Below are positions 51,966 to 64,000 of a stretch of 64,000 bases of DNA, piece after piece; the stretch's first letter is position 1, and every line of letters starts with the position of its first letter. The position numbers and the translations under genes were made by a program. The DNA comes from an uncultured bacterium (GTDB taxonomy: Bacteria; Patescibacteriota; Gracilibacteria; Absconditabacterales; Absconditicoccaceae). The notes beneath the pieces were generated by a model. That model was not told the origin of the DNA. It did not search any database and worked only from the letters and a program-made list of their open reading frames with translations. The DNA lies in the NCBI GenBank assembly GCA_937862935.1, contig CALMEO010000055.1, positions 19,927 to 83,926 on the forward strand. The letters run 5' to 3'.

Positions 51966-52883
51966 ATGTTAGAATTTAACAAACCTAAATGCCACGTAAT
52001 TGTTAGTCTCAGTGGCGGGATGGACTCAAGTACATTGTTACTTAGATGTCTAAAAGAGTACGATAGTGTAACAGCTATCTCATTTGACTATGGTCAAAAA
52101 CATAGAGTAGAGCTAGAGAAAGCTCAATCATTGGTAGATTACTTAAATTCCACTTTAACCAAAGTAGAAGGACTATCTCAAGAACATCAAGATTTTTTTG
52201 AAGAAAATGGTATAGATGTCGATTCTCTTATAAAAAGTAAAAAACAGGAATACGGACCTATTAAATACCATCAAATTAGGTTAGATGGATTGGTAAACCT
52301 ACTTGATTCAACTTTAGTAACAGGAGGTAAGGATGTACCTGAAGGTCACTATGCTGAAGATAATCAAAAAGCAACTGTTGTACCTAACAGAAATAAGATT
52401 TTTTCATCTATTACTCAAGCGGTAGCTTTATCAATTGCAAATAGAACAGGAGAGACTTGTGATATTGCTTTAGGAATCCATAACGGAGATCACGAAATCT
52501 ATCCGGACTGTAGACAAGAATTTAGAGATGCAGATGATGCTGCCTTTAGAATCGGAAACTGGGATGCTGATAGAGTAGGATTCTTTACTCCGTATTTAGA
52601 AGGAGACAAATTTACTATCTTACAAGATGGAGAAGTATTGTGTACAGAGCTGGGATTAGACTTCAATGAAGTTTATAAAAGAACTAACACTTCTTATAAA
52701 CCATATCCTTCGGGAAATAGTGACTATAAGTCAGCTTCGAGTGTAGAAAGGGTTCTAGCTTTTATTAAATTAGGAGTAGCAGATCCGGTACAATATGAAG
52801 ACGAAACAGGACCAGTAGGGTGGGAAGTAGCAAAAGCTCATGCTATACAGATTGAAGAAGATTTCTTAAAAGAAAATAAATAG
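51966..52883 (+). CDS. queC: QueC-like PP-loop ATPase (7-cyano-7-deazaguanine synthase family), atypical
   Basis: VSLSGGMDSS (SGGxDS), FDYGQKHRVE, VVPNRN and IYPDCRQEF; the C-terminal Zn-Cys cluster is absent. Confidence 0.7.
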   Translation: MLEFNKPKCHVIVSLSGGMDSSTLLLRCLKEYDSVTAISFDYGQKHRVELEKAQSLVDYLNSTLTKVEGLSQEHQDFFEENGIDVDSLIKSKKQEYGPIKYHQIRLDGLVNLLDSTLVTGGKDVPEGHYAEDNQKATVVPNRNKIFSSITQAVALSIANRTGETCDIALGIHNGDHEIYPDCRQEFRDADDAAFRIGNWDADRVGFFTPYLEGDKFTILQDGEVLCTELGLDFNEVYKRTNTSYKPYPSGNSDYKSASSVERVLAFIKLGVADPVQYEDETGPVGWEVAKAHAIQIEEDFLKENK

Positions 52884-52936: not shown

Positions 52937-53623
52937 ATGCATTACGTATATATTACTACAAATCTTATTAACAAGAAATACTATATAGGAAAACATAAAG
53001 GAGAAGTTGATGATAGGTATCTTGGATCAGGAGTAGTTTTAAAGCAAGCTATAGAAAAATACGGAAAAGATAATTTTGAAAAAGAAATCTTAGTAATTTG
53101 TTCAACAGAGGAAGAAGCTAATCACTGGGAGAGAATCACTATACAGGAACATCTATCAGATCCAAACTGCTACAATATCGCCCCAGGAGGAGAGGGAGGT
53201 TATACAATTAAGCATTTTTCTGAAGAAGAAAAACAGAAAGTAAGGCAGAAAGCATCAAAAAGTTATAAACAGTACATAATATCTCACCCAGAGGAAGTAA
53301 AATCTCGGCAGGAGAGACAAAAAGTAACGTTACTTTCCAATATAGAAAATCATAGAAAAGCTGTTAAAGAAGGTCTACTGACGAGATCGGAAGAAGACAA
53401 GAAAGCACAGCATGAAAAGATAACACAGAAAAAATTAGATAACGGATACTACAGTGAATATCAGTTAATAGATCCGGAAGGAAATACGGTAATGCAAAGT
53501 ATTGGAGCAGAAAATATTGCAAAAAAATACGGAGCAACACCTAATGGGATACGATTAGCTGCTAAACACAGACAGCCTATTTCAAGAGGAGTATTAAAAG
53601 GGTATAAAGTAGTAAAAATTTAA
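52937..53623 (+). CDS. GIY-YIG homing endonuclease
   Basis: HYVYITTNLINKKYYIGKH...YLGSG. Confidence 0.85.
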   Translation: MHYVYITTNLINKKYYIGKHKGEVDDRYLGSGVVLKQAIEKYGKDNFEKEILVICSTEEEANHWERITIQEHLSDPNCYNIAPGGEGGYTIKHFSEEEKQKVRQKASKSYKQYIISHPEEVKSRQERQKVTLLSNIENHRKAVKEGLLTRSEEDKKAQHEKITQKKLDNGYYSEYQLIDPEGNTVMQSIGAENIAKKYGATPNGIRLAAKHRQPISRGVLKGYKVVKI

Positions 53624-54036: not shown

Positions 54037-54297
54037 ATGAAACAATTTATAAAGAAACCAATTACGGTTGAAGCTACCCAATTAATAGATAACAACTTTA
54101 GAAGTTTAGACGATGTTCCACTTAGTATAGCTGGAAAATGAAAGGTAGGTAATGATGAGTATGGGTTTTATGTTGCTATACCTACATCAGAAGGTGATGT
54201 AAAAGCAAGAAACAACGACTGGATTATTAAATTACCAAGCGGAGAATTTTATACATGTAAACCTGATATTTTTAAAAAAAATTATCAAGAAGTTTGA
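54037..54297 (+). CDS. small phage protein interrupted by an in-frame TGA (pseudogene or readthrough)
   Basis: MKQFIKKPITVEA...SIAGK-TGA-KVGNDEYGFYV...GEFYTCKPDIFKKNYQEV; TGA at 54139..54141; no in-frame start in the second half. Confidence 0.4.
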
Positions 54298-54444
54298 GAA
54301 GAATAAAATAACCTGTACCCTCGAAATACTCATTAAGATAGTAGGTTAGCTCGAAATAAAAGGGTAATAGAATAAGAGCAAAATAGACTGTCAAGGTAGG
54401 ACGTCAGTTATAGAGAGGTGAGCCATACCTATTCCTCTCAAAAT

Positions 54445-54557
54445 AGTCAGGTGGCGGAAAGGTAAACGCTCACAGGTTGGTATTGTAAAAGAGGAATTGA
54501 CCTCCATCTCCATGTTTTAATGGTTATACCTTACAGGTTCAAATCCTGTCCTGACTA
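54445..54557 (+). tRNA. oversized tRNA-like gene (113 nt), anticodon unresolved
   Basis: Acceptor AGTCAGG/CCTGACT, D arm GCG-GAAAGGTAAA-CGC, T arm ACAGG-TTCAAAT-CCTGT, CAAA trailer; the middle holds a branched GGTAT...ATACC domain with two 6-nt-loop hairpins. Confidence 0.4.
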
Positions 54558-54561
54558 CAAA

Positions 54562-54647
54562 GATCATTTAGTGTAAGTAGCAATTCATGCTCATAGGTAA
54601 CACGGTGTCGTGAACACCAGATGAGAGTTCGAGTCCCTCAATGATCT
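54562..54647 (+). tRNA. aberrant tRNA-like gene (86 nt), anticodon unresolved
   Basis: Acceptor GATCATT/AATGATC, T arm GAGAG-TTCGAGT-CCCTC, CAAAAT trailer; GTGT...ACAC helix encloses a 25-nt loop; GGTGT-CGTGA-ACACC hairpin has a 5-nt loop. Confidence 0.35.
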
Positions 54648-54667
54648 CAAAATAAAATAAAGACTAG

Positions 54668-54696
54668 TTGGTAGTCTGAAAAATTATTCATATATT
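54668..54696 (+). promoter_or_regulatory. sigma70-like TTGGTA-N17-TATATT element (copy A)
   Basis: Exact 17-nt spacing; downstream of the aberrant tRNA pair. Confidence 0.4.
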
Positions 54697-54735
54697 AAAG
54701 TATGATTAAAAGATACATGAAATGGGTAACAGAGC

Positions 54736-54743
54736 CTATTTAT
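54736..54743 (+). promoter_or_regulatory. CTATTTAT box
   Basis: 18 nt upstream of ATG 54761. Confidence 0.45.
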
Positions 54744-54760
54744 ATATAGAACAATAAAAA

Positions 54761-54913
54761 ATGAAAGCAATTCAAAACATACAACAGTTTAAAAGCACAG
54801 CGCATAGAGCCATTCAAGTGGTATCGGATTCGTTATGTGGCGATTTTAGCTGGGATGTAATTCTTGAATCTTCATATAATAACGAACCTAAACTAGGAGG
54901 TACCGAGGTATGA
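54761..54913 (+). CDS. small hypothetical protein (50 aa), not in ORF track
   Basis: CTATTTAT box 18 nt upstream and a rho-independent terminator 30 nt downstream. Confidence 0.45.
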   Translation: MKAIQNIQQFKSTAHRAIQVVSDSLCGDFSWDVILESSYNNEPKLGGTEV

Positions 54914-54943
54914 TATAAGTTCTAAAACATAGACTTATTAAGT

Positions 54944-54976
54944 ACCCGGATCAGAAAAAAGATTCGGGTTTTTTAT
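54944..54976 (+). terminator. rho-independent terminator after the small ORF 54761..54913
   Basis: ACCCGGATC-AGAAAAAA-GATTCGGGT followed by TTTTTT. Confidence 0.75.
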
Positions 54977-54985
54977 TGAAAAAAA

Positions 54986-55057
54986 AGTTGGTAGATTGAA
55001 ATATTATCACTATATTTAAAGTATAGAAATAAGGTCATTGACATATTGGATAAAATT
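54986..55057 (+). repeat. about 72-bp dispersed repeat, copy 1 (promoter-like)
   Basis: About 90 percent identical by eye to 61360..61432; contains TTGGTA-N17-TATATT and TTGACA. Confidence 0.8.
54988..55016 (+). promoter_or_regulatory. sigma70-like TTGGTA-N17-TATATT element (copy B)
   Basis: Follows a terminator; 44 nt upstream of tRNA-Ser; part of a 72-bp repeat. Confidence 0.45.
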
Positions 55058-55059
55058 AA

Positions 55060-55147
55060 GGAGAGTGAAGCAGCGCCATGGAGGTGCGACTAGTCTTGAA
55101 AACTAGGTCCCGTCTTTTCGGGTGGGGTTCGAGTCCTCCGCTCTCCG
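55060..55147 (+). tRNA. tRNA-Ser(UGA)
   Basis: Acceptor GGAGAGT/GCTCTCC, anticodon stem CTAGT/ACTAG, loop CT-TGA-AA, long variable arm CCCG..CGGG, T loop TTCGAGT. Confidence 0.85.
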
Positions 55148-55153
55148 CAATAT

Positions 55154-55225
55154 TGGGTTATAGTGTAATGGTTAGCACAAAACACTTTGGCTGTTTTAGT
55201 CTAGGTTCGAATCCTAGTAAGCCAA
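55154..55225 (+). tRNA. tRNA-Gln(UUG)
   Basis: Acceptor TGGGTTA/TAAGCCA (U1-A72, one G.G mismatch), stem AAACA/TGTTT, loop CT-TTG-GC, T arm CTAGG-TTCGAAT-CCTAG. Confidence 0.8.
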
Positions 55226-55240
55226 CCGAGTGCTGTTTTT

Positions 55241-55273
55241 GTATTTCCTTCCTATTTATTAGAAAGGAAGTAC
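55241..55273 (+). promoter_or_regulatory. hairpin enclosing the promoter box upstream of the GIY-YIG gene
   Basis: GTATTTCCTT pairs with AAGGAAGTAC, 10 bp including one G.U; ATG at 55277. Confidence 0.5.
55252..55259 (+). promoter_or_regulatory. CTATTTAT box inside a hairpin loop
   Basis: 18 nt upstream of the GIY-YIG ATG 55277. Confidence 0.5.
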
Positions 55274-55276
55274 ATC

Positions 55277-55957
55277 ATGGCAAAAAGAGTATACGGTACA
55301 AGAAAAAAATATCATTTTATTTATAAAACTACAAATTTACTAAGTGGAAGATACTATATAGGAATGCATTCAACAGATGACCTGAATGACGGATATTTAG
55401 GATCGGGTACATTATTAAGAAGATCTATAAAAAAGCACGGTAAAGAAAACTTTAAAATAGAGATCTTAGAATTTTTAGATTCAAGGGAAGCTTTAGTAGC
55501 AAGAGAAAAAGAGATCATATCTCTTCAAGAAATTGCTAAGAAAGAATGTATGAATTTAAAAGTAGGAGGAGAAGGAGGATTCTCCAGCGAAGAGCATAAA
55601 CAAAAATTCCTACAAGGACGAGAGTGGGGAAAGCTTTTAGGAGCTAAAACAGGAGGAGATCTTAGACGAGGAGTAGGTTTAGAAAGCACACACAGAGCTC
55701 TGATTAGTTTAAAAATGAAAGAACACTATACAACAAATATAGGACACTTCAGCAATAAAACACATTCAGAACAGACTAAGAAAAAAATGTCAAATGCTAA
55801 AAAAGGAAAAGGATTAGCACAGACTAATTCACAATACGGAACTTGTTGGATCACCGATGAGTATTCCAATAAAAAAATAATAAAAGGAGAAACAATCCCA
55901 GAAGGATGGAGATTAGGAAGAAAAATAAAAAAGCAATCCCTCTGCCACGGGTATTAG
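55277..55957 (+). CDS. GIY-YIG homing endonuclease
   Basis: YHFIYKTTNLLSGRYYIGMH...GYLGSG; C-terminal WITDE...PEGWRLGRKIK; last 10 nt overlap tRNA-Pro. Confidence 0.85.
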   Translation: MAKRVYGTRKKYHFIYKTTNLLSGRYYIGMHSTDDLNDGYLGSGTLLRRSIKKHGKENFKIEILEFLDSREALVAREKEIISLQEIAKKECMNLKVGGEGGFSSEEHKQKFLQGREWGKLLGAKTGGDLRRGVGLESTHRALISLKMKEHYTTNIGHFSNKTHSEQTKKKMSNAKKGKGLAQTNSQYGTCWITDEYSNKKIIKGETIPEGWRLGRKIKKQSLCHGY

Positions 55958-56023
55958 AGGAGTCCGGTCTATCTCGCTGCATTTGGGATGCAGAGCACGC
56001 AGGTTCGAATCCTGCATACCCGA
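55948..56023 (+). tRNA. tRNA-Pro(UGG)
   Basis: Acceptor CGGGTAT/ATACCCG, stem CTGCA/TGCAG, loop TT-TGG-GA, T arm GCAGG-TTCGAAT-CCTGC. Confidence 0.85.
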
Positions 56024-56081
56024 CGAGTGAGACTGTTACTAATTCATAGAACTATAGAGTGTTTGCATAGAATTAGATTAT

Positions 56082-56153
56082 TCCCTCGTAGCAAATCGGT
56101 ATAGGCAATAGACTTTTAATCTATGGGATCAGGTTCAACTCCTGACGGGGGAA
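56082..56153 (+). tRNA. tRNA-Lys(UUU)
   Basis: Acceptor TCCCTCG/CGGGGGA, stem ATAGA/TCTAT, loop CT-TTT-AA, T arm TCAGG-TTCAACT-CCTGA. Confidence 0.8.
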
Positions 56154-56243
56154 CAAAAATCAACTAGTCACTGTAAAACCAGTGGGCGTCAGTAAGTATT
56201 CTGAGCGACGTTTAAATCCTGAAAGCAATTGTTGATTTTATTT

Positions 56244-56314
56244 GCCTCGATGATGTAATGGTAGCGTCGTTGTTTTACATGCAACAGGTGGAAGTTCGAT
56301 TCTTTCTCGAGGTA
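56244..56314 (+). tRNA. tRNA-Val(UAC)
   Basis: Acceptor GCCTCGA/TCGAGGT, stem GTTGT/GCAAC, loop TT-TAC-AT, T arm GGAAG-TTCGATT-CTTTC. Confidence 0.85.
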
Positions 56315-56360
56315 CTGTAGACTTTTTGAAAAGTTAGCCTATTCATTATAAACAGTAGAT
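56315..56360 (+). repeat. conserved GIY-YIG 5' flank, copy 1 (after tRNA-Val)
   Basis: CTGTAGACTTTTTGAAAAGTTAGCCTATTCATT... Confidence 0.9.
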
Positions 56361-57005
56361 ATGGCTAACATCAAAGAGAATAAAAAATACCACTACACTT
56401 ATAAGACAACAAATCTTATAAATGGTAGATATTATCTGGGAATGCACTCAACTAACCGTTTAGATGACGGTTACTTAGGAAGTGGTAAAAGACTTTATTA
56501 TGAATTAAATAAATACGGTAGAGACAATTTTAAGTTTGAACTACTAGAGCAATTTAATTCAAGAGAGGAATTAGTTCAAGCTGAAATTAATCTAATAACA
56601 GAACAAGATTTAAAAAATATAAACTGTTTAAACCTGAGTAAAGGAGGTAGTGGTGGTATTCATAACGAGGATCATTACAAGGCTTTTGTAAAAGGACCTA
56701 AGAATACAAGTGGGTGGATCTTGAACATGAAAAACCTAAAAGCAAACCCAGAATGGGTGAAATGGCATAGGGAATTAGTTATAAAAGGTCTTAGAGAGTA
56801 TTACAAAGTTTCAGAAGGACCTTTTAAAGGTAAGCAACATAAACCTGAGACTATTGAAAAAATGAAAGCGTCTCACAAAGGAGCAGGGAAAGGAACTAAT
56901 AATTCTCAATATGGTACTTGTTGGATTACAAACGAAACAGAAAATAAAAAAAATATACAAAGGAGATCTAATCCCAGAAGGTTGGAGATTGGGACGAAAA
57001 ATTAA
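56361..57005 (+). CDS. GIY-YIG homing endonuclease, C-terminus frameshifted in an A8 run
   Basis: MANIKENKKYHYTYKTTNLINGRYYLGMH; the paralogue-like ending IPEGWRLGRKIK is encoded in the +1 frame after 56946..56953. Confidence 0.75.
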   Translation: MANIKENKKYHYTYKTTNLINGRYYLGMHSTNRLDDGYLGSGKRLYYELNKYGRDNFKFELLEQFNSREELVQAEINLITEQDLKNINCLNLSKGGSGGIHNEDHYKAFVKGPKNTSGWILNMKNLKANPEWVKWHRELVIKGLREYYKVSEGPFKGKQHKPETIEKMKASHKGAGKGTNNSQYGTCWITNETENKKNIQRRSNPRRLEIGTKN

Positions 57006-57012
57006 ATAAACT

Positions 57013-57091
57013 GGGGTTATTGAGCAGGTGGTGAGCTCAGCGGTCTGTAAAATCGTGATTATTCTTGTAGGTTCGATTCCTACTAGCCCCA
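57013..57091 (+). tRNA. tRNA-Tyr(GUA)
   Basis: Acceptor GGGGTTA/TAGCCCC, D arm GAGC..GCTC, stem GCGGT/ATCGT, loop CT-GTA-AA, 10-nt variable region, T arm GTAGG-TTCGATT-CCTAC. Confidence 0.8.
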
Positions 57092-57158
57092 CAGTCAAAT
57101 TTTCTAACGTATGAAAAAACATTCAGTCTTCTAAGTACTAATCGTAACTTAGAAAAAG

Positions 57159-57434
57159 ATGTCAAGAAGTCGAAAAAAACCTTACTGTAAGGATAAGGGA
57201 ATGTCAACACAGGAATATTGGAAAGTTATCCGACATGAGTGGAAACAAACACTAAAACAAAATTATTGGAAAGATAGTTTGTACTTTAGAAACCCTGAGG
57301 AGATAATTAATGATTGGACAAGATGTGATTACATTTGGTTCATTAAAGAAAGTAGACCTTACTGGGGTGATGAAGAACCGATGCACTGGTTTGGATACAC
57401 TAAAGAAGATGTTAAAAAATACTCTAGAAAATAG
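57159..57434 (+). CDS. hypothetical Trp/Lys-rich small protein
   Basis: 91-aa ORF between tRNA-Tyr and tRNA-Phe. Confidence 0.5.
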   Translation: MSRSRKKPYCKDKGMSTQEYWKVIRHEWKQTLKQNYWKDSLYFRNPEEIINDWTRCDYIWFIKESRPYWGDEEPMHWFGYTKEDVKKYSRK

Positions 57435-57441
57435 GGTACTC

Positions 57442-57514
57442 GGAGCAGTGGCAGATCAGGTGATTGCGCTAGTCTGAAAAACTAGAGGAACGAGATCGTT
57501 ACTCGTCTGCTCCA
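57442..57514 (+). tRNA. tRNA-Phe(GAA)
   Basis: Acceptor GGAGCAG/CTGCTCC, stem CTAGT/ACTAG, loop CT-GAA-AA, T arm ACGAG-ATCGTTA-CTCGT (unusual A54/T58). Confidence 0.75.
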
Positions 57515-57626
57515 CAAAGTAGTTCTTGTCCCTTGTAAGGTGTGAAAGAATATATAAACGGTTTTTGCAGGTTCAAATCCTGGGTCTTGCAACTTTTTGC
57601 AAGTAGAACCGTGAGAATTACGAATT

Positions 57627-57698
57627 GGATTGTTAGCTCAGAGGCAGAGCGGTTGTTTGTTAGGCAACGGGTCGGGATTTCGAAATTCCCACAATCCT
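57627..57698 (+). tRNA. tRNA-Asn(GUU)
   Basis: Acceptor GGATTGT/ACAATCC, D arm GCTC-AGAGGCA-GAGC, stem GTTGT/GCAAC, loop TT-GTT-AG. Confidence 0.85.
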
Positions 57699-57704
57699 CA
57701 AAAT

Positions 57705-57776
57705 TGCTCTATCGTATAAAGGTTATTACGGATGACTGTTAATCATTTTATCTAGGTTCAAGTCCTAGTGGAGCAG
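57705..57776 (+). tRNA. tRNA-Asn(GUU), second copy with a divergent body
   Basis: Acceptor TGCTCTA/TGGAGCA, stem GATGA/TCATT, loop CT-GTT-AA, T arm CTAGG-TTCAAGT-CCTAG. Confidence 0.65.
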
Positions 57777-57897
57777 CAAGGGGTGTTAGTATCTCCTGAC
57801 GGGTTTAGATGTGTAACTTTCCCTCCAACAACTAACATTATAATTGGATTAATAAGGAACAACTCTTCGTAAGGTTATCAGATTAAACGTTACAACT

Positions 57898-57969
57898 GCT
57901 CCTATAGTAGAATGGTTAGCACACATCTCTGATAAGGATGAAATGGAGGTTCAATTCCTTCTAGGAGTA
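57898..57969 (+). tRNA. tRNA-Ile(GAU)
   Basis: Acceptor GCTCCTA/TAGGAGT, stem CATCT/GGATG, loop CT-GAT-AA, T arm GGAGG-TTCAATT-CCTTC. Confidence 0.8.
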
Positions 57970-57976
57970 CAGAAAT

Positions 57977-58063
57977 GGAGAATAGTCTAATATTGGTTTG
58001 TAGTGGCATCCTGCTAAGATGTTCCTGGTAAAACAGGTGAGAGTTCGATTCTCTTGTTCTCCG
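57977..58063 (+). tRNA. tRNA-Ser(GCU)
   Basis: Acceptor GGAGAAT/GTTCTCC, stem GCATC/GATGT, loop CT-GCT-AA, variable arm CCTG-GTAAAA-CAGG, T loop TTCGATT. Confidence 0.85.
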
Positions 58064-58192
58064 CAAAAACCTGTTCCCCGTCCTCACAAAGCATCTAAGG
58101 AATGCAGGAGTAGAATAGTACGTTCGGGGCCTTGTGGTAGGACACTTTAAAATCTAAAGTACAAAGATAAGTTAACAGGTTCTTATCAAATT

Positions 58193-58261
58193 GCCGAAGG
58201 ATCAGGTGATCGAGAATGGCTCATATCCGTTTTCAGGGTGGATCGTTACCACTCTTCGGTA
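58193..58261 (+). tRNA. tRNA-Met(CAU) (or Ile2/lysidine type), compact 69 nt
   Basis: Acceptor GCCGAAG/CTTCGGT, stem AATGG/CCGTT, loop CT-CAT-AT, T arm GGTGG-ATCGTTA-CCACT, short D arm. Confidence 0.65.
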
Positions 58262-58363
58262 CAAAAAATATCTAGGTAACAACCTGAGTTAAAGAAAGAA
58301 CTGGTTCACTCCTTCGTAATATTGTAACCCGCGGCTACAAAAAAGAAGAGGTATTTTTTACAC

Positions 58364-58437
58364 GGTGTATGTAGCTAAATGGTAAAGCGCTTGATTGTGG
58401 TTCAAGTCATTTGCGGGTTCAAGTCCCGTCGTACACC
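58364..58437 (+). tRNA. tRNA-His(GUG) with encoded G-1
   Basis: G-1 opposite C73, acceptor GTGTATG/CGTACAC, stem CTTGA/TCAAG, loop TT-GTG-GT, T arm GCGGG-TTCAAGT-CCCGT. Confidence 0.85.
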
Positions 58438-58571
58438 CAACAAATTAAGAAAAAGCTAATGGAGCTGTAAGTTAATAAGCAACCGGGATGGTGGATTTAA
58501 TCCTGGTGCGAAAAGTAAAACCAGAGGGATAAGTCCAATAAAAACCTCAAAAACTTACCTTAATTTTAAAT

Positions 58572-58644
58572 GCCTCTGTGGTGGAATGGAAGACACAACG
58601 AGTTTAAGCCTCGTACGCTGCAGGTTCGACTCCTGTCAGAGGTA
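58572..58644 (+). tRNA. tRNA-Leu(UAA) with a short (5-nt) variable loop
   Basis: Acceptor GCCTCTG/CAGAGGT, Leu-type D arm GTG-GAATGGAAGA-CAC, stem ACGAG/CTCGT, loop TT-TAA-GC, variable ACGCT, A73. Confidence 0.75.
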
Positions 58645-58896
58645 CAAAAAATTAAAGTGACGGAATTAGACGTTAAGAGAGATGAAGTGTTTATAACATC
58701 AGGTTGCGACTGGTGTATGTAAAACCAAGTTAAACTACCGTTAACTAAGTTTCTAGTACGAAGATTGATCCTCGTCGCAGAAGAAGTAGTATTAGAGATG
58801 TACCACAGGGGTTATAGACAATTATAACTGTTGGGTTTAGGTCGAAATGTTTAACATGTAGGTACCCAGTCCTACCTTTAATTTTTATTAACTATT

Positions 58897-59193
58897 ATGA
58901 AAGAGTTACCAGATACATTTAAGGAGTATATCATATATCAGTTAGAATATGGTAAAATCAAGATGTGTAGTGCATTTACTAGTCTGTTTTTTCATAAAGG
59001 ATATACAGGATTTAGGTACAGAGAGGTCTACAGTTTAGTGCAAGATGAAATTAGGAGATTTCGTACTGAAGAAGGTGTAAAAAGGAAGGAACAAGAACGT
59101 CTGTTAGAGGAAAAGAAACGGATGGCTAATCAACAGAGAAGTCTAAGTATGAAACGTTATTGGGAGCATAAGAAAAATTTCAAACAGGTTTAA
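58897..59193 (+). CDS. hypothetical small basic protein
   Basis: 98-aa ORF within the tRNA island. Confidence 0.5.
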   Translation: MKELPDTFKEYIIYQLEYGKIKMCSAFTSLFFHKGYTGFRYREVYSLVQDEIRRFRTEEGVKRKEQERLLEEKKRMANQQRSLSMKRYWEHKKNFKQV

Positions 59194-59269
59194 ACACTAA
59201 AGAAGTAAATTATTTAAACTCAAGGAATCGGGCATATGAAAAAGTGACTTCTAACTTAATGTTAAAAAT

Positions 59270-59341
59270 GGTCCTATAGTTTAATTGGAAAAATTTAAGA
59301 ATACGAATCTTAGGTTAGGGGTTCGAATCCTCTTAGGACTT
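59270..59341 (+). tRNA. tRNA-Arg(ACG)
   Basis: Acceptor GGTCCTA/TAGGACT, stem TAAGA/TCTTA, loop AT-ACG-AA, T arm AGGGG-TTCGAAT-CCTCT. Confidence 0.8.
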
Positions 59342-59352
59342 CAAAAAAGATT

Positions 59353-59423
59353 GCCCTATTAGTTTAACGGAAGAACATATCTCTTCTAAAGATAGAGTCT
59401 TGGTTCGAGTCCAAGATGGGGTT
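59353..59423 (+). tRNA. tRNA-Arg(UCU)
   Basis: Acceptor GCCCTAT/ATGGGGT, stem TATCT/AGATA, loop CT-TCT-AA, T arm CTTGG-TTCGAGT-CCAAG. Confidence 0.8.
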
Positions 59424-59427
59424 CAAT

Positions 59428-59487
59428 ATATATGTAAAAACATATAAAAAAGTTAATATTAGGTAATTTATATGTTTTTACATATAT
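59428..59487. repeat. perfect 21-bp inverted repeat with an 18-nt spacer
   Basis: ATATATGTAAAAACATATAAA (59428..59448) versus TTTATATGTTTTTACATATAT (59467..59487). Confidence 0.9.
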
Positions 59488-59503
59488 CTAAAAATTTACT
59501 AAT

Positions 59504-59574
59504 ACGTCAGTGGTGTAATGGTAACATACCGGTCTCCAAAACCGACGATAAGAGTTCGAATCTCTTTTGACGTG
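59504..59574 (+). tRNA. tRNA-Trp(CCA)
   Basis: Acceptor ACGTCAG/TTGACGT, anticodon arm CCGGT-CTCCAAA-ACCGA (as in bacterial tRNA-Trp), T arm AAGAG-TTCGAAT-CTCTT. Confidence 0.8.
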
Positions 59575-59618
59575 CTGTAGACTTTTTGAAAAGTTAGCCT
59601 ATTTATTGAAAAATAAGT
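59575..59618 (+). repeat. conserved GIY-YIG 5' flank, copy 2 (after tRNA-Trp)
   Basis: CTGTAGACTTTTTGAAAAGTTAGCCTATTTATT... Confidence 0.9.
59599..59606 (+). promoter_or_regulatory. CTATTTAT box
   Basis: 13 nt upstream of the GIY-YIG ATG 59619. Confidence 0.5.
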
Positions 59619-60269
59619 ATGGCTAACATCAAAGAGAATAAAAAATATCATTTTACATATAAGACAACAAATCTTATAAACAAAAGGTATTACTTAGGGA
59701 TGCATTCAACTAACCGTTTAGATGACGGATATATAGGAAGCGGTAAAAGACTTTATTACGAATTAAACAAATACGGTAAAGAGAATTTTAAATTTGAAAT
59801 ACTAAAACAGTTTAATTCAAGGGAGCAGTTAGTTGAAGCTGAAACAAGCTTAATAAGTGAAGAAGTTTTGAAAGATCCAAACTGTCTTAACATGGTAGTA
59901 GGAGGTTCAGGAGGAAATGTAGGTAAAGGAGGAGAGCACTTAGGAGGAGATTGCTGGGCAGCTGCTAATAAATATTGGAAAACAGAAGAAGGATTCAAAA
60001 AGAAATCAGAGACTGCAAAAAAAGTAGCTAAGAGAAGAATACAAGAGGGTACTTGGAATGTCTTTCAAAAAGGAAACCAGGTATGGAAAGGAAGAAAGCA
60101 TACACCTGAGACTATTGAAAAAATGAAAGAGACAAAAAAAGGTCATGGGAAAGGTATAAATAATTCACAATTTGGAAAATGTTGGATAACTAACGAAGTT
60201 GAAAGTAAGAAAATTCACAAAGGAGAACTAATTCCAGAAGGATGGAGATTAGGCCGAAAGATAAAATAA
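59619..60269 (+). CDS. GIY-YIG homing endonuclease
   Basis: MANIKENKKYHFTYKTTNLINKRYYLGMH...GYIGSG; ends PEGWRLGRKIK. Confidence 0.85.
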   Translation: MANIKENKKYHFTYKTTNLINKRYYLGMHSTNRLDDGYIGSGKRLYYELNKYGKENFKFEILKQFNSREQLVEAETSLISEEVLKDPNCLNMVVGGSGGNVGKGGEHLGGDCWAAANKYWKTEEGFKKKSETAKKVAKRRIQEGTWNVFQKGNQVWKGRKHTPETIEKMKETKKGHGKGINNSQFGKCWITNEVESKKIHKGELIPEGWRLGRKIK

Positions 60270-60329
60270 CTTTGGCATGAAAAAAGAATTTGATGCTCAC
60301 TAGGTTTATTAACCTAAAAGTGAGCAAAA

Positions 60330-60515
60330 ATGCGAATTAAACATTATACTAACAGAGAGTATAAAAAACAAAAACGTAGAGAGTATCCGGAATGGGATAA
60401 ATGGTTTGAGGATAACTGGAGTAAAAAGTCTAAAATATGGGCTTTCAAGTACAGAGAATACAGAACATGGAAACATAGCCGAAAAACTCAATACAAAACT
60501 AAATTGTTTCATTAA
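60330..60515 (+). CDS. hypothetical small basic protein
   Basis: 61-aa Lys/Arg/Trp-rich ORF. Confidence 0.4.
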   Translation: MRIKHYTNREYKKQKRREYPEWDKWFEDNWSKKSKIWAFKYREYRTWKHSRKTQYKTKLFH

Positions 60516-60526
60516 AAAAGGAAATC

Positions 60527-61033
60527 ATGAGTAAGTACAGAAAAACACTCGTAGTGGATTCAAGCTTTATTGCAAGAAGCATTATACCTGCTGAAAGAGC
60601 ATTCGTGATTTCATATAAAGGTAATGCTGAAGTAATTGCTGATCACCCAGAATCGTTTGGGTTAGTAAATCCTGAATTAGACATTAAAAAACCTTCAATC
60701 ATCAGGGTTTTTAAGTTTGTAAAGCAAAACATTCTAAAAGTACCTCTTACAAGAGAGAATATCTACAGAAGAGATAATTATGAATGTGTTTACTGTGGAA
60801 GTGATAATGTCAAAACATTAACATTGGACCACGTAATACCTCAATCAAAAGGAGGAAAAGACAGTTGGGATAATCTAGTTACAGCTTGTAAAAGATGCAA
60901 TGGTGAAAAGTCAGACTTAACATTAGAGGAATATGGAAAAGAAATTCCAACTCCATACCGTCCACATTACTTAATGTTAATGAAACAGATGCATGACATC
61001 CCAGAAGAATGGAAACATTTTTTATTATTTTAG
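60527..61033 (+). CDS. HNH endonuclease
   Basis: CVYCGS...LDHVIPQSKGGKDSWDNLVTACKRCNGEKSD. Confidence 0.85.
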   Translation: MSKYRKTLVVDSSFIARSIIPAERAFVISYKGNAEVIADHPESFGLVNPELDIKKPSIIRVFKFVKQNILKVPLTRENIYRRDNYECVYCGSDNVKTLTLDHVIPQSKGGKDSWDNLVTACKRCNGEKSDLTLEEYGKEIPTPYRPHYLMLMKQMHDIPEEWKHFLLF

Positions 61034-61036
61034 GAT

Positions 61037-61195
61037 ATGGAATTTTACAAAATAGGTAACACAAAACTTGAATTAGGATTTCGTAAGCTGTTACAAATGT
61101 CAGACAGAAAAGCTAGAATAGAAGGAATTGAAAAACTAACAAAAACCAAAATTATTATTGAAAATAATAATGTATTTATAATATGGTTAAAATAA
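61037..61195 (+). CDS. small hypothetical protein (52 aa), not in ORF track
   Basis: ATG 4 nt after the HNH gene stop. Confidence 0.35.
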   Translation: MEFYKIGNTKLELGFRKLLQMSDRKARIEGIEKLTKTKIIIENNNVFIIWLK

Positions 61196-61270
61196 AACAC
61201 CTGCTACGTAGTCACTACAGGACAATACGTACAGACAGGGAAGAAAAGATCAGCCCAGGTGTTTTAAATT

Positions 61271-61340
61271 GGCTTGTCTGGTCTTGGAGGCCGGTTGGAT
61301 TGCAAACCCAATAGAGACAGTTCGATTCTGTCACAAGCCT
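61271..61340 (+). tRNA. tRNA-Cys(GCA)
   Basis: Acceptor GGCTTGT/ACAAGCC, loop TT-GCA-AA, T arm GACAG-TTCGATT-CTGTC, U73 discriminator. Confidence 0.8.
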
Positions 61341-61359
61341 CAAAAAGAGTTTTAAAAAT

Positions 61360-61432
61360 AGTTGGTAGATTAAAATATTATCACTATATTAAAAGTATAA
61401 TAATAAGGTCATTGACATATTGGATAAAATTT
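61360..61432 (+). repeat. about 72-bp dispersed repeat, copy 2
   Basis: See 54986..55057. Confidence 0.8.
61362..61390 (+). promoter_or_regulatory. sigma70-like TTGGTA-N17-TATATT element (copy C)
   Basis: Part of the 72-bp repeat, upstream of the Leu-Thr-Gly-Glu tRNA run. Confidence 0.45.
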
Positions 61433-61654
61433 AAGACATTAAATTAACATAGTCGTCACTAGCAGGCGTATTAATCTTTCCGTTATAGACTAAGCGGTCG
61501 TAATGTAGTGTTACATCTCAATAAAACGAGATTGGATCCGATTTAGAAACAAGTACATGTTTCCTTATCTGATTTGGAGTAACTCCTTAGGATGCTTTTT
61601 TAAAGATTGAATATTTTAGGTAATCCAATTCCTATTGACTATGTTAATTAAAAT

Positions 61655-61728
61655 TGCTCCGGTGGTGGAATTGGTAGACACGCTTGACTTAGGATCAAGA
61701 TATTGAGGGTTCGAATCCCTCCTGGAGT
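61655..61728 (+). tRNA. tRNA-Leu(UAG) with a short (5-nt) variable loop
   Basis: Acceptor GCTCCGG/CTGGAGT, canonical Leu D arm GTG-GAATTGGTAGA-CAC, stem CTTGA/TCAAG, loop CT-TAG-GA, variable ATATT, A73. Confidence 0.75.
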
Positions 61729-61800
61729 ACAAAATTAGAGTTAGCTTATAGTAAAGCACCTGAAAAGGATAACGGATACGAAAACCGGCTCTAATTAATT

Positions 61801-61872
61801 TGCCGCTAAAGCATAAAAGGTGATGCACTTGTTTTGTACACAAGACAACGGAGTTCGATTCTTCGTAGCGGC
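61801..61872 (+). tRNA. tRNA-Thr(UGU)
   Basis: Acceptor GCCGCTA/TAGCGGC, D arm GCAT..ATGC, stem CTTGT/ACAAG, loop TT-TGT-AC. Confidence 0.85.
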
Positions 61873-61879
61873 TCAAAAA

Positions 61880-61951
61880 TGCGAATGTCGTATAATGGAT
61901 ATTATTTTTGACTTCCAATCAAAAGATGGCAGTTCGATTCTGCTCATTCGC
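61880..61951 (+). tRNA. tRNA-Gly(UCC)
   Basis: Acceptor GCGAATG/CATTCGC, stem TTTGA/TCAAA, loop CT-TCC-AA, T arm GGCAG-TTCGATT-CTGCT. Confidence 0.85.
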
Positions 61952-62079
61952 TCAAAATTTACCTCAGAGAGGATAAGTTGTGAGGCTACCGTACCTTGGC
62001 ACTTACAACCGTAATGGGGACTTGCAAGGTCTTTAATCCCAAGAGTAAAAGGACGTGAGGGATTGGGTAAATTTTTAAC

Positions 62080-62151
62080 TGCTACCGTCGTCTAACGGCT
62101 AGGACATAACACTTTCACTGTTAAAAAGAGGGTTCGATTCCCTTCGGTAGT
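62080..62151 (+). tRNA. tRNA-Glu(UUC)
   Basis: Acceptor GCTACCG/CGGTAGT, D arm GTCT..GGAC, stem TAACA/TGTTA, loop CT-TTC-AC. Confidence 0.85.
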
Positions 62152-62218
62152 ACAATGTACTTTTTTCATAATTGATTTATTTAATGTAAATTGATATTTA
62201 TTTTTAAATAAATCAATT

Positions 62219-63769
62219 ATGAAGAAGTTAATTACATTAATTTTGTTAATACTTACAACATTAACATACAGTCAAAATAACCTGGTGGTTGATTATTCAC
62301 CAAGTTCTGAAGTAATTGCAAACCCTGAGAGAGGTTTTCACAAATTTACAGAAACCACTTCTACAAGTTACAGTTTTCTTAATCAAACTAGTTTAAATGG
62401 GTACAGAACAGGTGTTGATAAAATTACCATGGTCTATAGAGGGTTTTACCTAGAGAGTTTCATGAATTCATCAATAAGTCAAGCATACTTAAGTAATATG
62501 CAAACAGACTTTAGTACTTTGAGAAATGCTGGGGTAAAAGCAACTATTAGGTTTGGGTATTACACAAGTTCACAAACAGGACCATACCAACCGTCTAAAG
62601 CACAGATAATATCACATATACAACAGTTAGCTCCAATTATAAACTCCAATAAAGATGTTATACTTTCTATTCAAATAGGGTTTATTGGTAGATGGGGCGA
62701 GTATTATTATACAAATTCAACAGAGTTTGGAAATGGAGACTATACAGCATATACATCACTACAATGGCAAAATAGGAAAGAAGTTTTAGATGCATGTTTT
62801 AGTAATTTTGACAGTTCTATTTTTATACAGTTAAGATACCCTTATGCTAAAACAAAAATGTATGGAAACGTTTACATTCCAAGACTGGGGTATTTTAATG
62901 ATGCTTTTTTAAATGTATATGGTGATGAAGGGTTTTTTCCTATTTGTCAAACATGTACTCCAAGTCAGTCTCAAATAAATGAGGTGATTCTGCAGACGGA
63001 AAACAATCCAATGACGGGTGAAACAAACTCAGTAAATTCCCTGACAAATGGAACAAATGCAATAACACAAATGGATTTGTTTAATTGGAGTATAATAAAT
63101 AGAGATTATTATCCGCAAGCGATACAACAGTGGCAGACTGATGGAAGTTTTAGTACTATAATTAATAGGCTTGGTTATAGGTTTAAATTAAATAAAGGAA
63201 TCTATTACCTAAATAATAATGTTTTAGATGTAAATATTTCAACTTCTAATGAAGGTTTTTCAAAAATACTTAAAGAAAAGAATGTTAACATTATTTTAAA
63301 GAGTAGTTTAAATACCTATTACTTTCCATTAGAATATAATGTTAAGAATTGGGGAAATAACATCATAGAAAGTATAAATATTTCCGGGATAATAGATGGA
63401 GTGTATAATGTATATTTAGAGATAGTTGACAAAGATTTACCCAACAATGTTAACTATAAAGTACATTTAGCTAACTCTAACATATGGGATTCAGTTAATG
63501 GATACAATGATTTGAAGTTTACCATAAACAAATCCGGTTCAGGTAGTTTAGGAAATGTGTTAAATTCAATTCCCACTTTAAATGTATATCCAAATCCAAC
63601 TACAGGTATTGTGTATTTACCTTATAAGCTAAGTTATAAGGTGTATAACAGTAATAACAAACTTATAAAAAGTGGTACAGGTACACAGGTTAATATTTCA
63701 AATAAACCGAATGGTATTTACTTTTTAAAGATAGAAGGATTTCAAACAATAAAGATAATCAAACAGTAA
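62219..63769 (+). CDS. secreted DUF4874/DUF4832-like putative glycoside hydrolase with T9SS C-terminal sorting domain
   Basis: Signal peptide MKKLITLILLILTTLTYSQ; NPERGF and GFIGRWGEYYY motifs; C-terminus LNVYPNPTTGIVYL...NGIYFLKIEGFQTIKIIKQ. Confidence 0.65.
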   Translation: MKKLITLILLILTTLTYSQNNLVVDYSPSSEVIANPERGFHKFTETTSTSYSFLNQTSLNGYRTGVDKITMVYRGFYLESFMNSSISQAYLSNMQTDFSTLRNAGVKATIRFGYYTSSQTGPYQPSKAQIISHIQQLAPIINSNKDVILSIQIGFIGRWGEYYYTNSTEFGNGDYTAYTSLQWQNRKEVLDACFSNFDSSIFIQLRYPYAKTKMYGNVYIPRLGYFNDAFLNVYGDEGFFPICQTCTPSQSQINEVILQTENNPMTGETNSVNSLTNGTNAITQMDLFNWSIINRDYYPQAIQQWQTDGSFSTIINRLGYRFKLNKGIYYLNNNVLDVNISTSNEGFSKILKEKNVNIILKSSLNTYYFPLEYNVKNWGNNIIESINISGIIDGVYNVYLEIVDKDLPNNVNYKVHLANSNIWDSVNGYNDLKFTINKSGSGSLGNVLNSIPTLNVYPNPTTGIVYLPYKLSYKVYNSNNKLIKSGTGTQVNISNKPNGIYFLKIEGFQTIKIIKQ

Positions 63770-63837
63770 TTAAACCATATACCGGTTTTAATAATACATT
63801 GAAAGCATGTAGAATTGAAGTCGAGGTACTGTAAAAT

Positions 63838-63910
63838 GGGTCGGTAGCATAAATGGCAAATGCGCTTGATTTGCAATCAGGAAGATTGGGTTCGAATCCC
63901 ACCGTATCCA
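63838..63910 (+). tRNA. tRNA-Ala(UGC) with an imperfect acceptor stem
   Basis: G1-C72, G2-C71, G3.U70 and U4-A69 are present; the inner acceptor pairs need a bulged T; D arm GCAT..ATGC; loop TT-TGC-AA. Confidence 0.65.
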
Positions 63911-63955
63911 CTGTAGACTTTTTGAAAAGTTAGCCTATTTATTTAAAAAATAGAT
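63911..63955 (+). repeat. conserved GIY-YIG 5' flank, copy 3 (after tRNA-Ala)
   Basis: CTGTAGACTTTTTGAAAAGTTAGCCTATTTATT... Confidence 0.9.
63935..63942 (+). promoter_or_regulatory. CTATTTAT box
   Basis: 14 nt upstream of the GIY-YIG ATG 63956. Confidence 0.5.
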
Positions 63956-64000
63956 ATGGCTAATTTCAAAGAGAATAAAAAGTACCACTACACGTATAAG
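63956..64000 (+). CDS. GIY-YIG homing endonuclease, 5' fragment (runs off the window)
   Basis: MANFKENKKYHYTYK, same N-terminus and same 45-bp upstream block as 56361 and 59619. Confidence 0.75.
   Translation, partial: MANFKENKKYHYTYK

Follow-up and report, generated by a model that had tools for sequence, protein, structure and literature searches.

The end of a 64,000-nucleotide (nt) window, which is the whole stretch of DNA analysed here (positions 19927-83926 of the 104.6-kb contig C55), carries a tRNA island with endonuclease genes in its spacers. We consider it likely that this is a phage tRNA island with an old, nearly fixed tRNA backbone, which was invaded by free-standing homing-endonuclease genes including four SegB paralogues. 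The island extends from 54445 to about window-equivalent 66976 and is roughly 12.5 kb long, with ~3 kb beyond the window. "Window-equivalent" denotes the same numbering carried past position 64000, and L001 is the contig DNA past the window end (L001:606 = window-equivalent 64606). The other L-numbers (L003, L005, L019, L021, L023 and so on) denote related viral loci, which were fetched via the TROVE protein and via SegB-like copy 2.

SegB-like genes in the tRNA spacers

An earlier note on this DNA had listed four GIY-YIG genes and one HNH gene and had pointed to SegB of T4. All five genes were found (GIY-YIG at 55277, 56361, 59619 and 63956, HNH at 60527), and the family named proved to be the right one: judged by alignment, the four GIY-YIG proteins of the island are homologous to T4-type SegB along their full length, with 37-41% identity to RB32 SegB.

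55277-55957, + strand: SegB-like no. 1, 226 amino acids (aa); 39% identity to RB32 SegB; phrog_314 E=2.7e-42
56361-57005, + strand: SegB-like no. 2, 214 aa, between tRNA-Val and tRNA-Tyr; 37% identity to RB32 SegB
59619-60269, + strand: SegB-like no. 3, 216 aa; 40% identity to RB32 SegB; phrog_314 E=1.1e-38
63956 to window-equivalent 64606 (L001:606), + strand: SegB-like no. 4, 216 aa; 41% identity to RB32 SegB

The four genes start 49 nt past tRNA-Gln, 45 nt past tRNA-Val, 43 nt past tRNA-Trp and 46 nt past tRNA-Ala, respectively. The stop codon of no. 1 overlaps tRNA-Pro by 10 nt, and no. 4 crosses the window end. BLASTP aligned no. 3 with RB32 SegB from end to end (residues 10-216 vs 2-220, E=9e-46), and the best matches of a translated search of isolated phages included T4-type genes annotated segB. 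Residues Y17, G19, E67 and N83 (RB32 numbering) were invariant in the alignment of the in-island proteins with SegB, and the C-terminal NSQ.G..WI...IPEGW..GRK region of SegB was kept in them. Mutation of Y17 and G19 kills T6 SegB (PMC13096335). RB32 segB also fills a tRNA-tRNA spacer (Ile>Arg), where it starts 25 nt past the tRNA.

SegB-like no. 2 is frameshifted near its end by an A8 run (56946-56953), and the conserved C-terminus KKIYKGDLIPEGWRLGRKIK with its stop lies in the +1 frame. The frameshift reflects either a decaying copy or a homopolymer assembly error.

Cassette mobility and competing explanations

The order of the tRNA genes was nearly the same in 11 phages (this one and ten related viral contigs), whatever their endonuclease content: Ser-UGA, Gln, Pro, Lys, Val, Tyr, Phe, Asn, Ile, Ser, His, Leu, Arg, Arg, (Trp), then Cys, Leu, Thr, Gly, Glu, Ala, Asp, Met. 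L005 has 25 tRNAs within 4.8 kb and no SegB-like gene. Spacers that are filled here are short in relatives:

Gln>Pro spacer: ~700 nt here; 9 nt in L005; 8-9 nt across L005, L021 and L023
Val>Tyr spacer: ~700 nt here; 7 nt in L005; 4-7 nt across L005, L019, L021 and L029
Ala>Asp spacer: ~700 nt here; 69 nt in L005

Empty spacers of 4-9 nt (aatt or aaaaatt, for example) and filled ones of ~700 nt were compared at seven junctions. At filled sites the discriminator plus C is followed immediately by TGTAGAC, the gene runs to its stop codon, and the next tRNA begins after 1-5 nt. The comparison with related phages that the earlier note had proposed thus found 4-9-nt spacers where this phage has a 650-nt gene, and sequence comparison supports a cassette-like mobility of the SegB-like genes. 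The clade they belong to is represented by no copy in the L003 genome (97% complete), none in L005 (100%), one in L023 (100%) and four here; the L005 genome gave a remote GIY-YIG match only (E=1.5e-6). In all, the fetched loci contain 37 SegB-like genes that start 35-59 nt past a tRNA, and 15 isotypes are represented among these tRNAs.

A clade with a 45-nt leader (support 100/100) sits at 10 different junctions. Its leader starts one base past the discriminator of Leu-UAA, Glu, Gln, Val, His, Ala, Ser-GCU, Tyr, Ile and Ser-UGA, and the cassettes of this phage start one base past that of tRNA-Gln, Val, Trp and Ala. A cassette consists of a 43-49-nt leader and a gene of ~215 codons, and in relatives it ends 1-5 nt before the next tRNA. 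Since the conserved sequence begins one base past the discriminator, the tRNA lies outside it; by this comparison, what moves is the endonuclease gene together with its 45-nt leader, not a pair of tRNA and endonuclease. On a tree of 35 proteins the insertion-site label needs 23 changes, against a minimum of 16, and the Val copy of this phage (no. 2) is the sister of a Leu-UAA-site copy. The single site-based group consists of the Ala-site copies, no. 4 with those of L019 and L027 (support 92/94), and this grouping across three phages fits fixed-site inheritance.

These comparisons bear on the homing reading of the earlier note, by which the island was built and spread as tRNA-plus-endonuclease units. 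The stretch holds 5 endonuclease genes in 9.7 kb and every SegB-like gene stands directly behind a tRNA, as such units would. Mobility of the GIY-YIG genes is upheld by their presence and absence among relatives; assembly of the island by homing is not, because the tRNA backbone occurs without SegB-like genes. The near-identical tRNA order is kept in phages with 0, 1 or 4 cassettes, L005 has the whole array without any, one cassette clade stands behind 10 different tRNAs, and the conserved sequence excludes the tRNA. We therefore regard assembly from such units as very unlikely.

The leader of the Val cassette shows the features common to the clade:

56316-56360, + strand: 45-nt cassette leader, CTGTAGACTTTTTGAAAAGTTAGCCTATT..., with a CTATTTAT-type box and the 5′ arm of a hairpin over the start codon

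The leader is conserved in 12 cassettes behind 10 different tRNAs (>90%, CTGTAGACTTTTTGAAAAGTTAGCCTATTTAT...). In all 12 leaders of the 45-nt clade, GUUAGCCUAUUUAU pairs with AUAGAUAUGGCUAAC (consensus -13.7 kcal/mol), and in two of them one G-C pair is replaced by A-U, a covariation. The hairpin has 13-14 bp; the CTATTTAT box of this phage lies in its 5′ arm, and AUG lies in its 3′ arm together with the two codons that follow. In the window, where 1.07 occurrences of a CTATTTAT-type box would be expected, 13 were counted, all of them on the + strand and a short way before start codons. Because the 3′ arm contains AUG, RNA that reads through from the tRNA operon would be closed to ribosomes, and RNA that starts at the CTATTTAT box would be open to translation. 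The same hairpin logic is known for T4 late genes and I-TevI.

It is improbable that the GIY-YIG genes are inactive relics or passengers, moved by ordinary recombination between tRNA flanks. The frameshift in copy 2 would agree with such an origin, as would the many short homologies that tRNA genes supply for recombination and the presence of non-nuclease cargo (a type IX secretion system (T9SS) enzyme, a glycosyltransferase and small open reading frames (ORFs)) in the spacers. However, three copies keep full frames, catalytic residues and C-terminal DNA-binding motifs, and leader and hairpin are conserved across phages whose proteins are 55-68% identical. The left cassette boundary, moreover, coincides with the published cutting position of SegB, the tRNA 3′ end.

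T4 SegB recognises ~27 bp including the T-arm motif GGTTCRANTCC and cuts tRNA genes at the 3′ end; through SegB the T4 tRNA region is preferentially inherited in crosses with T2, and the 2008 work predicted that a nuclease reading the universal T arm could colonise any tRNA gene (PMC2330249). The cleavage motif of T6 SegB, RAWTSGAAC, is the complement of the T loop, and a 2026 study of T6 found SegB homologues co-localised with all tRNA isotypes in phages of several phyla, including Bacteroidota (PMC13096335). By homology with T4 SegB, the enzymes encoded here would cut tRNA genes of co-infecting relatives without the cassette, and the break would be mended from a cassette-bearing genome, so that the gene and its neighbouring tRNAs are copied across. 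Since nearly all tRNA genes share the motif that is recognised, a cassette would now and then jump behind another tRNA. Of the 29 distinct tRNAs upstream of cassettes, 28 have the canonical TTCRA T loop. Insertion one base past the discriminator would replace the distal few bases of the 27-bp site and may protect filled sites.

Several points weigh against invasion by homing endonucleases. Copy 1 passed the Pfam GIY-YIG (PF01541) cut-off of 22.6 bits; copies 2 and 3 scored 17.6 and 18.4, and for this reason the SegB-family membership rests on the SegB alignment and PHROG 314. At 37-41% identity, cleavage specificity could differ from that of T4 SegB, and copy 2 may be inactive if its frameshift is not an assembly error. 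The precise cassette boundaries are partly forced, because neighbouring tRNAs are only 4-9 nt apart and tolerated insertions must fall there. Variant T loops were not significantly depleted upstream of cassettes (28 canonical and 1 variant vs 358 and 33 elsewhere; Fisher P=0.30), and T-arm differences between filled and empty alleles at the Val, Gln and Ala junctions showed no consistent pattern or clear immunity changes. Variant T loops were also considered as immunity alleles; the same depletion result left that idea unsupported.

Besides homing, and in addition to it, the SegB-like genes may have been kept as useful, with relaxed cutting at tRNA genes driving segmental amplification and exchange of these genes, by which the phage would escape tRNA-cleaving host defences; we consider this possible, though rather unlikely. 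SegB-dependent segmental amplification of tRNA-Tyr has been described in T6 under Septu pressure (PMC13096335), and a complete decoding set, such as this island has, is expected if host tRNAs are attacked (PMC10264068; PMC11555353). Four paralogues are retained in one island, three of them with intact frames, and same-slot tRNA alleles are mosaic. Yet one copy is frameshifted, near-complete relatives have no SegB-like gene, and the island shows no tandem amplification: the Asn, Asp, Gly and CAU duplicates are old divergent pairs, also found in L005.

A further, unlikely proposal is that the SegB-like swarm acts as a built-in engine of island remodelling. Relaxed cuts, directed by the T arm to every tRNA gene, would provide slot-wise allele exchange between co-infecting phages, cargo capture in the spacers and copy-number change; tRNA genes with an A54/U58 T loop (GATCGTTAC) would be alleles that evade the cuts yet retain the tRNA fold. 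The mosaic same-slot alleles and the T9SS gene behind an apparent remnant of a SegB leader fit this proposal; the non-significant depletion of variant T loops upstream of cassettes speaks against it.

Weighed against these alternatives, invasion of an older tRNA backbone by homing endonucleases remains the reading that we favour.

Phage origin and tRNA content of the island

The region is the tRNA island of a large standard-code phage, whose host most likely belongs to the Bacteroidota. The contig has 113 ORFs, every one on the + strand. TGA is the stop codon of 7 of the 91 contig ORFs of at least 100 codons, and recoding TGA as sense altered nothing. In other large contigs of the same bin, coding density rose from 0.17-0.32 with the standard code to 0.81-0.90 with TGA as sense; for the rest of the bin taken together it rose from 0.18 to 0.84. 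A tRNA with anticodon UCA was found on contig C88. Another contig of the bin, C44 (61.6 kb), uses the standard code and has every ORF on one strand. Thus the bin is that of a TGA-recoded bacterium, and C55 and C44 are standard-code phage contigs that were put in the wrong bin; for C55 this follows from its stops at TGA, where the remaining bin contigs need TGA as sense. For the same reason the bin is not a credible host, and annotators should treat the contig as foreign to the genome with which it is binned. When we asked whether C44 is the remainder of this phage, no match to its DNA polymerase turned up in the near-complete genomes from which L003 and L005 derive.

The closest relatives of the contig come from IMG/VR; they are viral contigs 160-173 kb long, with completeness ratings of 97-100%. 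Megablast against isolated phages gave a single match, the tRNA-Pro of Cellulophaga phages phi4:1 and phi17:2 (92%). A Bacteroidota host is proposed because of this match, the IMG/VR relatives and a T9SS sorting domain encoded in the island. That the region is instead a chromosomal tRNA array of the TGA-recoded bacterium is extremely unlikely. The contig does sit in that bacterium's bin, and bacteria with long tRNA arrays are known (PMC8421152); but the single coding strand and TGA stops, against TGA as sense in the other contigs, and the nearly complete viral relatives contradict it.

The earlier note had folded 23 tRNAs for 19 amino acids by hand, with Asn, Ser, Leu and Arg occurring twice. 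Gene finders recovered the same set: ARAGORN at default settings called 21 tRNAs in the window, all on the + strand from 55154 to 63909, and relaxed settings or Rfam added tRNA-Ser(UGA) and tRNA(CAU). The Rfam tRNA model RF00005 (gathering score 29) matched 19 of the 21 at 48.7-64.6 bits; tRNA-Ser(GCU) and tRNA-Cys gave weak scores only, with the related tRNA-Sec model.

55061-55145, + strand: tRNA-Ser(UGA), class II; Rfam 36.3 bits, ARAGORN relaxed; Ser-TGA at the same place in L005
55154-55227, + strand: tRNA-Gln(UUG); ARAGORN, Rfam 61.8 bits
55948-56024, + strand: tRNA-Pro(UGG); ARAGORN, Rfam (51.7-58.7 bits for the Pro, Lys and Val group)
56082-56154, + strand: tRNA-Lys(UUU); ARAGORN, Rfam (same group)
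56244-56315, + strand: tRNA-Val(UAC); ARAGORN, Rfam (same group)
57013-57092, + strand: tRNA-Tyr; ARAGORN
57442-57515, + strand: tRNA-Phe, variant T loop GATCGTTAC; ARAGORN
57627-57699 and 57705-57777, + strand: two tRNA-Asn; ARAGORN
57898-57970, + strand: tRNA-Ile(GAU); ARAGORN
57977-58064, + strand: tRNA-Ser(GCU); ARAGORN
58193-58261, + strand: tRNA(CAU), 4-nt D loop, variant T loop AUCGUUA; relaxed ARAGORN or by hand only
58365-58438, + strand: tRNA-His; ARAGORN, Rfam 60.5 bits
58572-58645, + strand: tRNA-Leu(UAA), 74 nt; ARAGORN, Rfam 55.8 bits
59270-59342, + strand: tRNA-Arg(ACG); ARAGORN, Rfam (55-60.8 bits for the Arg, Arg and Trp group)
59353-59424, + strand: tRNA-Arg(UCU); ARAGORN, Rfam (same group)
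59504-59575, + strand: tRNA-Trp; ARAGORN, Rfam (same group)
61271-61341, + strand: tRNA-Cys; ARAGORN, weak with the tRNA-Sec model
61656-61730, + strand: tRNA-Leu(UAG), 75 nt; ARAGORN, Rfam
61802-61874, + strand: tRNA-Thr; ARAGORN, Rfam
61881-61953, + strand: tRNA-Gly(UCC); ARAGORN, Rfam
62081-62153, + strand: tRNA-Glu; ARAGORN, Rfam
63838-63909, + strand: tRNA-Ala(UGC); ARAGORN; 100% identical to the L005 allele

The minimum-free-energy fold of tRNA(CAU) at 58193-58261 is a cloverleaf (-25.3 kcal/mol), and in L022 and L032 ARAGORN called Met-CAT genes that share its odd T loop. The absence of tRNA-Asp reported in the earlier note holds within the window and fails for the island: it is a window-edge artefact, because the contig continues with two tRNA-Asp at window-equivalent 64695-64768 and 64910-64982. 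Past the window end ARAGORN found six more tRNAs (Asp, Gly, Asp, Met, Met and "Thr"), and Rfam added a third downstream CAU tRNA at window-equivalent 64990-65057 with an initiator-like GGG/CCC anticodon stem. The full set comprises ~28 decoding tRNA genes, with Asp twice and CAU four times; every codon box has its tRNA, and all 20 amino acids are covered. The island tRNAs with U34 were the Watson-Crick cognates of the phage's most used codon in all 11 boxes. Both tRNA-Leu genes (74-75 nt) were without a long variable arm; in the distant relatives L006-L010, Leu(UAA) has 86-88 nt.

In the variant T loop (GATCGTTAC, GAGCGTAAC), A54 and U58 replace T54 and A58. It was found in 16 distinct tRNAs of many isotypes in this lineage; in this phage it occurs in tRNA-Phe and three CAU tRNAs (57442-57515, 58193-58261, window-equivalent 65208-65278 and 65286-65358). 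Among relatives, tRNA alleles at the same slot were mosaic, with 49-100% identity. Compared with L005, tRNA-Asn and tRNA-Ala were 100% identical, Ile 55% and Cys 60%; compared with L023, Ile was 96% identical. This mosaicism points to frequent exchange within the island, judged from the alleles compared, and no clear link between the mosaic alleles and cassette positions was seen among the relatives.

Other island elements and relation to known systems

The island begins with two aberrant tRNA-like genes, which the earlier note had seen and which Rfam confirmed as real.

54445-54557, + strand: TLE-A, 113-nt tRNA-like RNA; Rfam tRNA 38.5 bits
54562-54647, + strand: TLE-B, 86-nt aberrant tRNA-like gene; Rfam 30.8 bits; ARAGORN relaxed only, as Leu(UAG)
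58650-58886, + strand: ~235-nt element in the Leu(UAA)>Arg(ACG) spacer, with ends like those of L003 TLE-A (AUUAAAG...CUUUAAU)
54980-55069, + strand: 90-nt promoter-like repeat, copy 1, leading into tRNA-Ser(UGA)
61354-61443, + strand: 90-nt repeat, copy 2, 89% identical to copy 1

TLE-A has acceptor, D and T arms, and a two-hairpin domain replaces or adjoins the anticodon arm. An identical TLE-A is found in the phage of L005 (L005:4224-4336), where the Ro60-like and QueC proteins share 70-78% identity with those encoded here. The L003 copy (L003:4623-4736) lies in another spacer; its changes in hairpin 2 and in the acceptor, D and T stems are compensatory, fully so in the three stems. TLE-A was also found in 16 further large viral contigs (L056-L071), with an invariant central domain, so that covariation cannot choose between an anticodon-like stem and a GGUAU/AUACC closure. 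Two sequence variants, which account for 10 of the 16 contigs, are without the 5′ acceptor strand. TLE-B is probably a degenerate tRNA; no counterpart of it follows TLE-A in the 16 other contigs. The 58650-58886 element occupies the Leu(UAA)>Arg(ACG) spacer in which L003 has TLE-A. On alignment with L003:4620-4742 its interior was unrelated to L003 TLE-A, and its fold z-score was -1.56.

The 90-nt repeat contains TTGGTAGATTGAAATATTATCACTATATT, and its 30-nt core occurs twice in the window (0 expected). Two tRNA sub-operons may have their promoter region in it. Copy 2 is followed by ~210 nt without a recognised gene.

At the other end of the island, tandem Y-RNA-like units lie directly upstream of a TROVE gene.

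L001:2587-2976 (window-equivalent 66587-66976): 3-4 tandem Y-RNA-like units
L001:3611-5179 (window-equivalent 67611-69179), + strand: TROVE (Ro60-like) gene, by family match

L003 and L005 have conserved counterparts of the units. Unit 1 has a long stem with a conserved bulged base, and inside this stem lies the last "tRNA" of the island (Thr, window-equivalent 66607-66681; "Gln" in relatives); in this phage the top of the tRNA-Thr acceptor stem is mismatched at two positions. Compensatory changes occur at 7 pairs of the unit 1 consensus fold. In unit 2 a T arm is followed by a closed acceptor stem and then a D arm, as in YrlA (PMC4201824); the next unit is a plain hairpin, and unit 4 seems to have been shortened in this phage by a second HNH gene. 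The Rfam YrlA model (gathering score 69) gave 31 and 33.8 bits, weak scores below that threshold, in L003 and L005 and had no match in this phage even at E=10; the Y-RNA-like assignment here therefore rests on alignment to the relatives. The units lie less than 4 kb from the TROVE gene and carry a tRNA-like domain on a long stem, as Y RNAs do. YrlA-type Y RNAs adjoin Ro60 (Rsr) genes in bacteria and in 22 phages (PMC4201824). The present locus resembles these in the TROVE gene that directly follows the units, the basal bulged stem and the YrlA order of unit 2, and differs in its tandem array of 3-4 units and in unit 1, which embeds a tRNA of normal topology in a long stem. The last "tRNA" of the island should thus be annotated with care, since it is probably part of a Y-RNA-like unit.

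Protein genes other than those of the SegB clade are found in and around the island:

50007-50696, + strand: GIY-YIG/NUMOD3 homing-endonuclease gene, not of the SegB clade; PF01541 E=1.5e-5, NUMOD3; phrog_314 "homing endonuclease" E=5.9e-28
51966-52883, + strand: QueC homologue (7-cyano-7-deazaguanine synthase), 67-78% conserved in relatives
52937-53623, + strand: GIY-YIG homing-endonuclease gene; PF01541 E=1.5e-7, phrog_314 E=1.3e-36
57159-57434, + strand: small ORF, 65% identical to an ORF at the same place in L003, which alone shares it
58897-59193, + strand: small basic ORF, 98 aa; no family, no homologue in related loci
60527-61033, + strand: resident HNH nuclease gene, 168 aa; Pfam HNH E=1.6e-16
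62219-63769, + strand: cargo gene with signal peptide, DUF4874, DUF4832 and T9SS C-terminal sorting domain (Pfam E=9.9e-40, 3.4e-32 and 7.7e-7)

The 168-aa HNH gene does not behave as a mobile cassette: no presence/absence polymorphism was found, and it stands directly before tRNA-Cys, with 76-82% identity, in all 13 related loci that hold this part of the island. Its conservation of ~80% in 13 phages exceeds that of QueC, and it is the sole protein gene in the L005 array proper (Ser(UGA) to the last tRNA-Met). IscB and Cas9 have the HNH domains closest to its own. From this conservation an island-linked role seems likely. A second HNH gene lies past the window end, and this second HNH type switches spacer between relatives.

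The T9SS-secreted enzyme gene of the earlier note is the DUF4874/DUF4832 gene with a T9SS tail at 62219-63769; the protein scored above the TIGR04183 cut-off, and the gene fills the Glu>Ala spacer. In L005, L027 and L032 this spacer is 4 nt long, and in L021 it is occupied by a SegB-like gene. Sixty nt across the tRNA-Glu 3′ end and the stretch before the cargo gene (62131-62218) were 62% like a tRNA end plus SegB leader; by this similarity, an endonuclease gene may once have stood behind this leader and have given way to the cargo gene. The several small ORFs listed in that note are also present (57159, 58897, 60330 and 61037), and none of them had a family match. No counterparts of the T9SS enzyme, the glycosyltransferase or ORFs 58897, 60330 and 61037 were found in related loci.

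Past the window end the contig continues with the rest of SegB-like no. 4, a GT4-like glycosyltransferase gene, the second HNH gene and the TROVE gene. Just upstream of the island lie the two further GIY-YIG genes (50007 and 52937), a Holliday-resolvase-like gene and queC; the last of these hints at deazaguanine modification of DNA or tRNA. The protein encoded at 52937-53623 is related to the in-island copies in its N-terminal domain alone (34-48% over ~80-145 aa), and no homologue of it was found in L003 or L005. A small ORF at 54037-54297 has an in-frame TGA at codon 35 and also ends at TGA. It resembles what we take to be a common phage protein of ~85 aa ending in ...GDWIIK...GEFY.CKPDIF, and may be a pseudogene or be read through.

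The island shares with T4, T6 and RB32 a full-length SegB homologue with the same catalytic and C-terminal motifs, in a tRNA-tRNA spacer, present in some related phages and absent in others. It differs in having four paralogues in one island instead of one, in belonging to an uncultured phage lineage, probably on Bacteroidota, and in a conserved 45-nt leader whose hairpin takes in the start codon; one copy, moreover, is frameshifted. Many natural junctions are occupied here and are resolved to the nucleotide. The tRNA region of phage T5 contains the site-specific endonucleases F-TflI, II and IV, and HNH and GIY-YIG genes are interleaved with a large phage tRNA cluster there as well.

Large phage tRNA sets counter host tRNA depletion or tRNA-cleaving defences (PMC10264068; PMC11555353). 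The island resembles such sets in that it is complete, has a tRNA for each codon box and fits the A-ending codons of the phage. It differs in that the unusual loops seen in several of its tRNAs are T loops (A54/U58) rather than anticodon loops. Nuclease genes are reported to mark boundaries of genetic exchange between phages (PMC10448857). The endonuclease genes here likewise stand amid mosaic neighbours, the tRNA alleles (49-100% identical at the same slot); no clear link between breakpoints and cassettes was seen.

The phenomenon itself is already known, for T4 SegB since 2008 and for the general association of SegB with tRNA genes since 2026; the present case is unusually clear. It provides a natural record of one cassette clade placed, to the nucleotide, behind at least 10 tRNAs, with empty sites for comparison. 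The portable leader should limit the translation of the cassette that carries it. The four paralogues, together with many defined empty targets, offer material on target choice and self-immunity of free-standing homing endonucleases.

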